Assembly (NCBI RefSeq): GCF_006345805.1
Contig: NC_043014.1
Location: 52,328,001-52,392,000 of the forward strand
Direction of reading: 5' to 3'
DNA from: Octopus sinensis
Lineage: Eukaryota
Length of the DNA: 64,000 nt
How positions within the stretch are numbered: position 1 is the stretch's first letter; every line of letters begins with the position of its first letter. Both the position numbers and the translations under genes were made by a program. The notes beneath the pieces are model-generated. The model was given only the letters and a program-made list of their open reading frames with translations, did no database searches and had not been told where the DNA came from. Below, piece after piece: positions 1,990 through 33,375 of the stretch.

Positions 1990-3272
1990 ATAGAAGAATA
2001 TATTAATAAAAGGAATTCCAACCTTGTCTGATTTTCACGTTTTATTTACAATCTTATAATATAATATAATAAAATAATAGAATTTTGAATGTTCATTCTG
2101 ATTGAACTTTCATGCATTAAAGTCTGCAATCTTCAGGTTCATGTAGTAGTGGTGACAATCATGCTTCAACATTTTTGACTGCAGCGAGATGATTGAATCT
2201 GTGCCTTAAATACAGCTGTGTGGGCTCCAGATTGCTAGGTTTTGCAAACTGTATTCTGACCAATCAGTGTGTAGTATCACTCAATTACTTAAGCTGATTG
2301 GTTGGTTGAGCCGATTGGTTTAGGCGTCACGCTTTGTTGGACATATCAGGAGTCCTGTATCTTAACCCTGGTCGAGGCAGCAATTGTTGGGCTATTTTTA
2401 GAAATGTTGTAAATAGCCTTTGTCAGAGATTTTTATATTTTTATATTTCAATTGTCATCATCATCATTGTCAGCACCTTAATTATTGTTGCTAGTGGTGA
2501 TGGTGGTGGCAATAGAACTTTTAACCCTAAATAAGATAATTTTCCCGCTATCTAAGTATTATTATTATTGCTTATTTAGCTTGGGTTCGAATTTATCAAT
2601 AAAATTCTTTTCTCTGATTCTCCTCTCGATTTCTCTTGGGCTTTGTAATTTGTAGAATGGAAATATTATATCTATTTTCCGACGACATGTTGCTAGGTGG
2701 TTACTCTAAGGTATCTGACGGACCTATTGGTCTCTAATCTGTTGTCGGTGTACACGTGAGCGATCTGATAGTGCGTTTCCCCTCTGACCTACATATATTT
2801 CTTCACAATTTGGGCATTTGATGCAGTAAATTAAATTTTTGCTTTTGAAGTTCATATTCGCGTTTGTGAATATTTTCCCGGTTTTTGTGTTTATATATTG
2901 GCCGGTATGTATGAATTGGCATGTGCCACAACGGCTATCATTGCATTTAGATACAGTGAATGTTTGGTCCTCGTTGCTAAGGTCAAATTTTGCCTTTGTT
3001 AGTAATTAGTAATTTTTCCACGTTTTTAGGCTGTCTTTTACTAAGAACCATAGCTCGATCCGTGATTATATCTTTTAATTCATTACTTTGAGCAATGATT
3101 GGTAGGTTTTCTTTGGCAATGTTGAAGATATTCTGGTGACATGGGTTGTGTGTCACTATGAATGGTATGACTTGTTCTTGCTTTCCTCTTCCTTGGGTTG
3201 TCCTAAGTTGTTGTATGTGTATTTTTATAGCCCGCTGTATGCCATTTTCTATAAGTAGAGATGGGTATTTTT
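1990..3272 (-). mobile_element. 5'-truncated Penelope-like retroelement (PLE): linker, GIY-YIG endonuclease and 3' non-coding end
   Basis: Manual minus-strand translation 3272->2565: KYPSLLIENGIQRA...IPFIVTHNP...SKRQPKNVEKLL/(frameshift)TKAKF...SKCNDSRCGTCQFI...KSKNLIYCIKCPNCEEIYVGQRGNALSDRSRVHRQQI...REKNFIDKFEPKLNKQ*. This has the Cys linker and the GIY-YIG motifs (LIY...YVGQ) typical of PLEs. One frameshift and two internal stops; microsatellites on both flanks. Confidence 0.9.
2103..2141 (-). ncRNA. Degenerate hammerhead-core motif in the PLE 3' end
   Basis: Minus strand: UGAAC-CUGAAGA-U-UGCA-gacuuuaa-UGCA-U-GAAA-GUUCA. Both core boxes and a helix II are present; helix III and the cleavage site are missing or decayed. 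Lies ~425 nt downstream of the GIY-YIG stop. Confidence 0.45.
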
Positions 3273-3280
3273 GTAACTAT

Positions 3281-24177: not shown

Positions 24178-24665
24178 CTATTTCTTTCCTACCCACAAGG
24201 GGCTAAACACAGAGGGGACAAACAAGGACAGACAAACGTATTAAGTCGGTTACATCGAAAGGATGAAAGGCAAAGTCGACCTCAGAACGTAACAGCGGAA
24301 GAAATACCTATTTCTTTATTACCCACAAGGGGCTAAACACAGAGGGGACAAACAAGGACAAACGTATTAAGTCGGTTACATCGAAAGGATGAAAGGCAAA
24401 GTCGACCCCAGAACGTAACAGCGGAAGAAATACCTATTTCTTTATTACCCTCAAGGGGCTAAACACAGAGGGGACAAACAAGGACAGACATAGGTATTAA
24501 GTCGATTACATCGACCCCAGTGCGTAACTGGTACTTAATTTATCGACCCCGAAAGGATGAAAGGCAAAGTCGACCTCGGCGGAATTTGAACTCAGAACGC
24601 AACAGCGGAAGAAATACCACTAAGCATTTCGCCCGGCGTGCTAACGTTTCTGCAAGCTCACCACC
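24178..24665 (-). mobile_element. SINE family B followed by two internally deleted tandem copies (periods ~126 and ~130 bp)
   Basis: ctatttctttNNtacccNcaaggggctaaacacagaggggacaaacaaggaca recurs at 24178, 24308 and 24434; only the last extends to the head at ~24665. Confidence 0.9.
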
Positions 24666-32249: not shown

Positions 32250-32371
32250 GTTTGTACGCAGCCATTGTATATGAAAGCAACGCCTCTTGTCCGATCATCC
32301 TGGTTAAGCAACATTAGAACTGGTCAATGCTCGGCTGGGTGACTGCCTGGGAAACCTAGGTGTTGTAAACA
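32250..32371 (+). pseudogene. Decayed 5S rRNA copy
   Basis: gtttgtacgcagccatt...ctcttgtccgatcatcctggttaagcaacattagaactggtcaatgctcggctgggtgactgcctgggaaacctaggtgttgtaaac is colinear with metazoan 5S (CTCGTCCGATC, GTTAAGCAAC box A, GGATGGGTGACCGCCTGGGAA box C). ~120 nt, many substitutions, no oligo-T terminator. Confidence 0.85.
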
Positions 32372-32478: not shown

Positions 32479-32809
32479 TCAGGTCATCCCATAAGTTCTG
32501 TCCGATTTCACCATTTTTTTAAAAAAGATTGAATAAAATTTAATAGTATTTTCGAATGTCTCATGGAATTAAAAAATAGTTTTATGCATTTGTGCACATT
32601 TAAACTAATTAAATATTATTTTACAGAATAATAGAATTAACACTTCTTTAATTAAAACCCTTCCTAACATGGAAGTATCCAAATAGCATTTGAGCCACAT
32701 GATTCTTTATGAGTACGAAAAAGGAAACTCTGCAGCCGAAGCGATTCGAAACATACACTCAGTTATTGGAACGACTGCTTGAATGAAAGAACTTGCAGGA
32801 GATGGTTTT
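32479..32809 (+). mobile_element. Mariner-like transposon 5' fragment (TIR and N-terminal HTH)
   Basis: TA followed by TIR-like tcaggtcatcccataagttctgtccgattt; from ATG 32669: MEVSK*HLSHMILYEYEKGNSAAEAIRNIHSV/..DCLNERTCRRWF, the mariner first-HTH pattern; truncated at (TA)n. Confidence 0.85.
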
Positions 32810-32820
32810 ATTTATTTATA

Positions 32821-32886
<66 letters not shown>

Positions 32887-32890
<4 letters not shown>

Positions 32891-33338
32891 AATAATGAAG
32901 GGTGAAATTAAATTAAATTAAATTTCACAAATTGAATTCGGTGATACCAGTTGCGGGTTCTAGCTCGCTCTGATACTGAGTGAGTTGGTGCCTTCTGGTA
33001 TCTCAAAATTCAATATATAATCATTTATGATTATAGTATTCTACGCTGAAGAGAAAAGAAGTTTCGGTAAGATAGAATTATTTATTATTTAATATTTAAT
33101 ATTTATTCGTATGCTTTCCTTAAAACTTGATTTCGAAACGTACGTCCGTGGATAACTAAAAAAATGTATGATAGATTGCAGTCAATTCATTCTCTCTTAC
33201 CTGTTTGTGCCTTCCAAATGCTGTTTTTACTGAGATCTCCCTTTTTAGTAGAAGAAATAGCTATAACCCTTTGACTGCTATTTCTAAATTCGGTATGTGG
33301 TAAGGCAACTCGTTGCTAAACCCTTATTGCTTAGTATT

Positions 33339-33342
<4 letters not shown>
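32887..33342 (+). mobile_element. Non-coding, hairpin-rich, hammerhead-containing element (retrozyme or non-autonomous PLE-like) embedded in (TA)n
   Basis: Bounded by (TA)n on both sides; consecutive inverted repeats (32902-32928, 32932-33013, 33016-33035, 33253-33285) plus a central HHR; no ORF. Confidence 0.7.
33040..33152 (+). ncRNA. Type I hammerhead ribozyme with palindromic helix III; predicted cleavage after C33146
   Basis: Helix I UCUACG (33040-45)/CGUGGA (33147-52); core CUGAAGA (33046-52); helix II GAAA-ag-AAGUUU/AAACUU-ga-UUUC; GAAA (33135-38); helix III palindrome ACGUACGU; GUC triplet at 33144-46. All conserved core nucleotides are present. Confidence 0.85.

Positions 33343-33375
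<33 letters not shown>

Follow-up and report, generated by a model that had tools for sequence, protein, structure and literature searches.

A tandem hammerhead repeat family of Octopus sinensis with one-A-one-B insertion ends in (TA)n, a non-LTR retrozyme probably copied by a Penelope-like element

We found that a hammerhead motif in a 64,000-nucleotide stretch of the Octopus sinensis genome (contig NC_043014.1, positions 52,328,001 to 52,392,000; hereafter the window) belongs to a non-coding tandem unit of 603 bp, and we consider it likely that a Penelope-like element (PLE) supplies the reverse transcriptase-endonuclease that copies this element, a non-LTR retrozyme, into (TA)n. The unit forms arrays that lie in (TA)n, their outer 3' ends fall at one of two fixed sites, A or B, and inverted insertions nearly always pair an A end with a B end.

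A preliminary description of the window, made from its letters alone, recognized a type I hammerhead ribozyme, and each of its parts was found where it had been placed: a 6-bp helix I (TCTACG at 33040-45 and CGTGGA at 33147-52), the core segments CTGAAGA (33046-52) and GAAA (33135-38), a long helix II arm of 82 nt (33053-33134) closed by GAAA/TTTC, and the palindrome ACGTACGT of helix III (33138-45), with a predicted cut after 33146 (Table 1). The general features of type I hammerheads are all present in the window (CUGANGA, GAAA, NUH, three helices and an open helix I). Unlike the minimal hammerheads of PLEs (PMC4209133), the window motif is of the canonical type: it has the canonical C3-G8 core and a G10.1-C11.1 pair, and its helices I and III measure 6 and 2 bp. 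The Infernal check that had been proposed gave a divided answer: the whole Rfam Hammerhead_1 model (RF00163, positions 1-45 of 45) aligned at 33040-33152 with a 78-nt insertion, but the score of 16.7 bits was below the gathering score of 34. An Rfam scan of the 6 kb around the motif had no hammerhead among its matches, and a short-helix hammerhead pattern gave no match either; both missed the hammerhead because its helix II spans 82 nt. A descriptor that allows a long helix II matched once in the window, whereas each of 200 local shuffles of the window gave no match. Hammerheads with a long helix II escape Rfam thresholds as well as short-helix descriptors, and families of this kind are likely to be undercounted.

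The 456-nt stretch around the motif folds at -120.9 kcal/mol (z = -6.7 compared with shuffles), and, as had been anticipated, folding is favoured on the hammerhead strand, the opposite strand reaching -88.7 kcal/mol. Closing helix III within a monomer is predicted to cost approximately 1 kcal/mol, whereas an intermolecular 8-bp duplex of the palindrome is predicted at -9.8 kcal/mol. These modelled energies are in line with the dimer model of PMC4209133.

Table 1 Features of the window copy and loci of the sister families (window positions unless a locus is given)
Feature	Location	Strand	Remark
Left (TA)n target microsatellite	32809..32886	.	Family-wide, 69/70 outer 3' ends abut (TA)n
Short inverted arm, unit 294 to ~260; outer end = site B	32887..32919	-	
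Inversion junction: short duplicated TTAAA units and TTCAC microhomology	32910..32928	.	Microhomology read from sequence
Direct arm, unit 379-603 then 1-196	32924..33342	+	99.5% identical to tandem-array copy (0 mismatches, 2 gaps)
Long predicted hairpin 5' of ribozyme; common inversion-junction site	32932..33013	+	
Type I hammerhead motif: 6-bp helix I, CUGAAGA, 82-nt helix II, GAAA, palindromic ACGUACGU	33040..33152	+	Predicted cut after C33146
5' half of conserved 3' module: two hairpins, TTCGGTATG arm, CCCTT motif; ends at site A	33225..33342	+	
Right (TA)n target microsatellite	33343..33371	.	
Sister-family loci	F2: L190-L192; F3: L117-L128; F4: L132-L142; F5: L165; F6: L175:5720-6860, L233-L247		

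What had been taken for a 456-bp element turned out to be a fragment. A search of the same genome returned near-identical copies at 603-bp spacing, and the true unit is 603 bp long; we number it from the base after the ribozyme cut. In these terms, the window copy consists of a monomer of the tandem unit that has been truncated and, inverted next to it, a short arm of the unit (Table 1). All six hairpin arm pairs that the preliminary description had named were located, but one of them, gtgaaatt/aatttcac, is not a feature of the unit: this first hairpin is a product of the inversion junction in the window copy, and GTGAAATT is absent from the + strand of the 603-bp unit. The GC content of the unit is 35% (210 of 603), and the longest reading frame in its 603 bp has 51 aa. 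When the unit was folded as a circle, the z score was -6.3 on the ribozyme strand versus -3.1 on the opposite strand (25 shuffles each). The window copy carries one ribozyme and is unable on its own to yield a unit-length circle; it is likely to be a dead end.

Copies across the genome bear out the proposal of a young, multi-copy, non-coding and tandem family that targets (TA)n and whose type I hammerhead has a palindromic helix III. A ribozyme 21-mer spanning the cut has 1,220 exact genome matches (0 for a control), and exact junctions with (TA)n number 497 for site A and 291 for site B genome-wide. The copies form dispersed arrays of 1 to approximately 20 units within (TA)n. Median identity of 114 full units to one reference copy is 98% (lowest, 91%), and the ribozyme core is intact in 159 of 163 copies that were picked via their 3' half. 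The median difference between units is 1 substitution inside an array and 7 between arrays, and both arms of inverted insertions carry common array variants. The uniformity within arrays agrees with a circle or a uniform multimer as the template. The partly shared variants within the arrays L094 and L068+69 do not fit copying from a single circle, unless they reflect later change or assembly mixing. The stretch around the motif is present in sequencing runs of five organisms.

Diverged matches led to at least five sister families (F2-F6), in which the parts stand in the same order. F2, F3 and F4 were found via the 3' module, and F6 by a scan that required a palindrome. The unit is 557 bp in F2 and 535 bp in F6, and F3, F4 and F5 are known from partial copies; over the module, the window family (F1) and F2 are approximately 69% alike. 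Among 10 ribozyme copies from five families, 58 of 60 helix I pairs are kept, with 2-4 pair types per position, helix II varies from 25 to 82 nt in length and helix III is palindromic throughout. In the sister families as a whole, helix II measures 25-83 nt. The preliminary description had set against its own reading the case of a single-copy sequence without covariation; what we found is a multi-copy family in which helix I covaries. In F3, two letters of the helix III loop are changed to ACGCGCGU, which is still a palindrome, a property that would be relevant to a dimer and irrelevant to the loop of a monomer. F2 carries GUU at the cut, and the U3-A8 core variant of PMC4209133 is found in F4 and also in N1, a local Neptune-type PLE family. 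The position of site B is alike in F1, F2 and F6, at +291 to +296 from the cut. In the 3' module, 90% of cells are paired versus 33-51% for slid controls; covariation in the module was not above shuffles, 274 of 500 of which matched its score. Approximately a dozen more hammerhead types with other palindromes (ACAUAUGU, ACUCGAGU, ACCUAGGU and ACCGGU) occur in the fetched loci, as seen in a scan that required a palindrome.

The ends of the insertions were mapped in loci sampled by their position on the first two contigs, together with the best search matches; L002 and L003 duplicate L097 and were removed, and ends that ran into the border of a stretch (three inverted and one uninverted) were left uncounted. 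Outer 3' ends fell at A (+186 to +201, approximately +191 from the cut) or at B (+279 to +306, approximately +294), and (TA)n adjoined 69 of 70 of them. Twenty of the 23 complete inverted insertions that were found via the ribozyme had one A and one B end, one was A/A, none was B/B and two had one end elsewhere; 20 of 21 A/B has a probability of approximately 1e-5 if the two ends are independent and 50:50. Uninverted copies ended at site A in 21 of 24 cases. The window copy is itself a B/A case, with a B arm of 35 nt and an A arm of 419 nt. When 20 loci were selected by their A junction, all eight complete inversions had B at the far end, and the L218 inversion was completed as B/A by L267. 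When 20 loci were selected by their B junction (18 of them without an exact A pattern), 15 of 15 inversions were A/B by eye; of the remaining loci, three were uninverted copies, one was interrupted by a gap in the assembly and one was the other half of L218. Sister families had A/B ends as well (10 of 11 distinct loci for F2 and 7 of 7 for F6), with queries that were biased to one end.

Sites A and B are unpaired in the predicted fold, and each follows a hairpin and CCCTT. The tail between them is approximately 100 nt long, and the insertions are tandem, inverted and 5'-truncated, with the tail on one end. They lie in (TA)n at both ends, which hides any target-site duplication. In many short inversions, both arms stop at one position on a small palindrome. 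The one-A-one-B rule likely reflects priming at two RNA sites, and at the genome level it suggests that the two sites would be used one per strand.

Truncation points were not enriched at the ribozyme cut (5 of 74 versus 4.9 expected), and 5' truncations showed no clustering at site A. At site B, there were nine versus 3.7 expected (P = 0.011 uncorrected; P = 0.10 by scan statistic), and unit positions 400-480, a region chosen after looking, held 20 of 74 truncation points versus 9.9 expected. Genome-wide, both arms stopped exactly at the cut in one insertion, which is about the chance level and not significant. Within one arm, arrays cross the cut up to approximately 14 times. Because truncations are unenriched at the cut and arrays cross it, cut linear monomers are not the main template; with a reverse transcriptase that would run through the cut site, the template would be an uncut multimer or a circle, and we lean towards the circle being a real intermediate.

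We propose that the arrays are transcribed on the hammerhead strand, that adjacent ribozymes would pair via ACGUACGU and cut slowly, and that this would release 603-nt monomers, which may circularize. A dimer of the PLE protein would bind the 3' module, where the helper reverse transcriptase would also start, and nick both strands of (TA)n. cDNA would then be primed at the two unpaired sites, A and B, one per target strand, and the reverse transcriptase would pass the cut site, continuing for up to approximately 14 units. The two cDNAs would then be joined by their 3' ends, at a microhomology or a short palindrome, into a head-to-head inverted insertion with one A and one B end, and failure of the second priming would leave an uninverted copy ending at A. 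In L1 twin priming, two primings on opposite target strands give rise to an inverted 5' segment that is joined at a microhomology. The proposed pathway is similar in its two-strand priming and microhomology joining, but here both sites are fixed internal RNA positions, whereas L1 uses the poly(A) end and a variable internal site.

PLEs have several of the properties that this pathway would call on. In vitro, a PLE protein, predicted to be a dimer, nicks both strands of AT-rich DNA, and its cDNA starts at two sites inside the RNA, which delimit the tail; these start sites were the same on both strands, and ribozyme cleavage was unneeded (PMC11167929). PLE insertions are tandem and inverted with a 30-40-bp tail on one end (10.1101/2021.04.23.441226). 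Similar to endonuclease-positive PLEs (Neptune/Nematis, and the Poseidon element PAc of PMC11167929), the octopus family has a hammerhead upstream of two internal end sites, and its insertions into an AT-rich or (TA)n target are 5'-truncated, occur in tandem and inverted form and bear a tail at one end only. Unlike those PLEs, it has no coding frame, its tail is approximately 100 nt rather than 30-40, and its end sites, approximately 190 and 295 nt past the cut, are much further from it than in PAc (PMC11167929). The palindromic helix III and enlarged helix II recall the hammerheads of PLE terminal repeats (PMC4209133). The terminal repeats of the three local Neptune-type families have no sequence match to the retrozyme.

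The main rival account of the inverted arm keeps the same element and helper but has a single B-primed cDNA snap back on the palindrome at its 3' end, after which it is copied to A and a TAT microhomology joins the target. Short inverted copies often stop both arms near the same unit position, at small palindromes such as CAATTG, GGTACC and CTAG, as snap-back would have it, but two identical cDNA ends could likewise anneal at such palindromes. Many insertions have arms that stop far apart, differing by several units, and snap-back leaves the prevalence of A ends among uninverted copies (21/24) unexplained; moreover, a PLE has two start sites in vitro (PMC11167929). We regard snap-back as improbable, and two-site priming remains our preferred explanation of the inverted arm.

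It is also conceivable, but in our view very unlikely, that the copies derive from an autonomous PLE, as the terminal repeats left behind after 5' truncation had removed its coding part. Terminal repeats of PLEs bear such ribozymes, mostly as lone motifs (PMC4209133), and 24 of 57 Xenopus families are homologous to known repeats, nearly all of which are PLE ends (10.64898/2026.07.22.740005). The octopus unit, however, is frameless and closes on itself in arrays of up to approximately 20. A tblastn search with one Neptune frame in 162 loci that had not been fetched as PLEs found only separate fragments past a TA tract in L079, and a search with three queries in 20 further loci found only the far edge of L256. 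Less probable still is that the copies are satellite DNA grown by local unequal crossover, with the ribozyme as a relic. Units are indeed homogeneous within arrays, and local amplification is proposed for tandem retrozymes in 10.64898/2026.07.22.740005, but a satellite would not be expected at hundreds of dispersed sites with fixed (TA)n ends and head-to-head inversions whose variants are common to both arms, nor would a relic ribozyme be expected to covary in helix I between families that are approximately 69% alike.

We infer a helper PLE from the insertion pattern. The genome contains young, intact elements in (TA)n that encode a reverse transcriptase and a GIY-YIG endonuclease in 781-aa stop-free frames, which are 99-100% identical, and a GIY-YIG search gave three Neptune-type families, N1, N2 and N3. 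The label rests on the order of reverse transcriptase then endonuclease and on a Cys linker, which is common to Neptune and Nematis (10.1101/2021.04.23.441226). Each of the three families carries its own ribozymes, and the two covered by tail mapping have their own 30-40-nt tails. The retrozyme 3' module had no profile match at the ends of N1, N2 or N3, and none of the loci tested had the repeat joined to a frame for reverse transcriptase and GIY-YIG. Matches to the module profile in L158, L165, L182 and L199 are nested retrozyme copies, not PLE ends, and an N2 end that resembles site A (CCCTTTTATTA) was dropped as proof because N2 has its own tail of approximately 30 nt.

Several further observations concern local PLEs. 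The window contains an N2 fragment at 2568-3273 on the - strand, with approximately 90% amino-acid identity, from the endonuclease end. By eye, young Neptune-type PLEs in L173-L177 and L180 seem to have an upstream frame joined to the reverse transcriptase at a T-run then A, a possible -1 frameshift. At L026:2960-3420, a reverse transcriptase fragment directly adjoins an inverted hammerhead-like end of an abundant type, which has ACUCAGAGU in helix III and in many cases the core CCGAYGA; the arrangement was seen as one adjacency. We take this fragment to be Naiad-like by its motifs and, to our knowledge, Naiads have been reported without hammerheads.

The family consists of tandem hammerhead units that are non-coding and low in GC, with dispersed, recently mobile copies. 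Animal non-LTR retrozymes (PMC7229834; 10.64898/2026.07.22.740005) are likewise tandem repeats that are low in GC and do not code for protein, and each of their units has one type I hammerhead with a short palindromic helix III; they occur as monomers, dimers and multimers, and PLEs co-occur with them. On the features compared, the octopus family fits among these retrozymes. Its 603-bp unit compares with approximately 300 bp as the typical length in PMC7229834 and a range of 51-972 bp in 10.64898/2026.07.22.740005, and its helix II arm is 60-90 nt long versus a 4-bp helix in the canonical form. The strict (TA)n target is also unlike the animal non-LTR retrozymes, and the passages covered in these two papers contain no description of fixed two-site ends or inverted arms for retrozymes. 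The long helix II, the 603-bp unit, the strict (TA)n target and the one-A-one-B end rule set the family apart, and the insertion anatomy is its new feature. The literature covered yielded no cephalopod retrozyme; the family may be listed in Repbase or Dfam as a repeat without a name, and supplements of the retrozyme papers could list an octopus family. The preprint 10.64898/2026.07.22.740005 also reports that eight of nine Xenopus retrozyme dimers were uncleaved in vitro and calls the mechanism of retrozyme mobilization open.

Inverted insertions would invite A-to-I editing of their transcripts. At L005:900-2150, A>G/T>C exceeded G>A/C>T in two of five sequencing runs guessed to be RNA (71 versus 10 in X1 and 45 versus 9 in X6), counts that have no matched DNA and come from sites that are not independent. 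The excess was absent from the large DNA-like runs X15 and X16 (3 versus 8 and 2 versus 9) and from X2, X8 and X9. The A>G/T>C pattern on both strands is a weak lead for such editing. In the window as a whole, 0 of 88 long frames matched Pfam at 1e-4. A decayed 5S rRNA-like stretch at 32254-32371 on the + strand (24.7 bits versus a gathering score of 38) may represent a pseudogene or else the start of a repeat derived from 5S, and in the left flank, 32665-32808 (+) looks by eye like the decayed start of a mariner-type transposase, a candidate. The window also contains a 28-bp GC-rich tandem array at 949-1516, of approximately 16 copies that are 96% alike, and a 126-bp tandem of a SINE-like repeat at 24178-24514.

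The link between retrozymes and PLEs has so far rested on co-occurrence and on likeness to PLE ends. Here, the PLE signature sits in the insertions themselves, in hundreds of near-identical copies. The A/B asymmetry predicts a dimer that starts at different RNA sites on the two target strands, and an in vitro system exists (PMC11167929). Tentatively, and conscious that the wider claim may well not hold, we suggest that the genome hosts an old clan of circular ribozyme RNAs free of protein, which has diversified into at least six families (535-603 nt in those whose length was measured). These RNAs would have no sequence likeness left to any helper and would offer a PLE dimer two structured start sites approximately 100 nt apart, one per target strand. 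If this is true, the one-A-one-B rule would be a genomic record both of how PLEs build inverted insertions and of how retrozymes are mobilized, and double-stranded RNA with heavy A-to-I editing would arise from the palindromic insertions, a source that renews itself.
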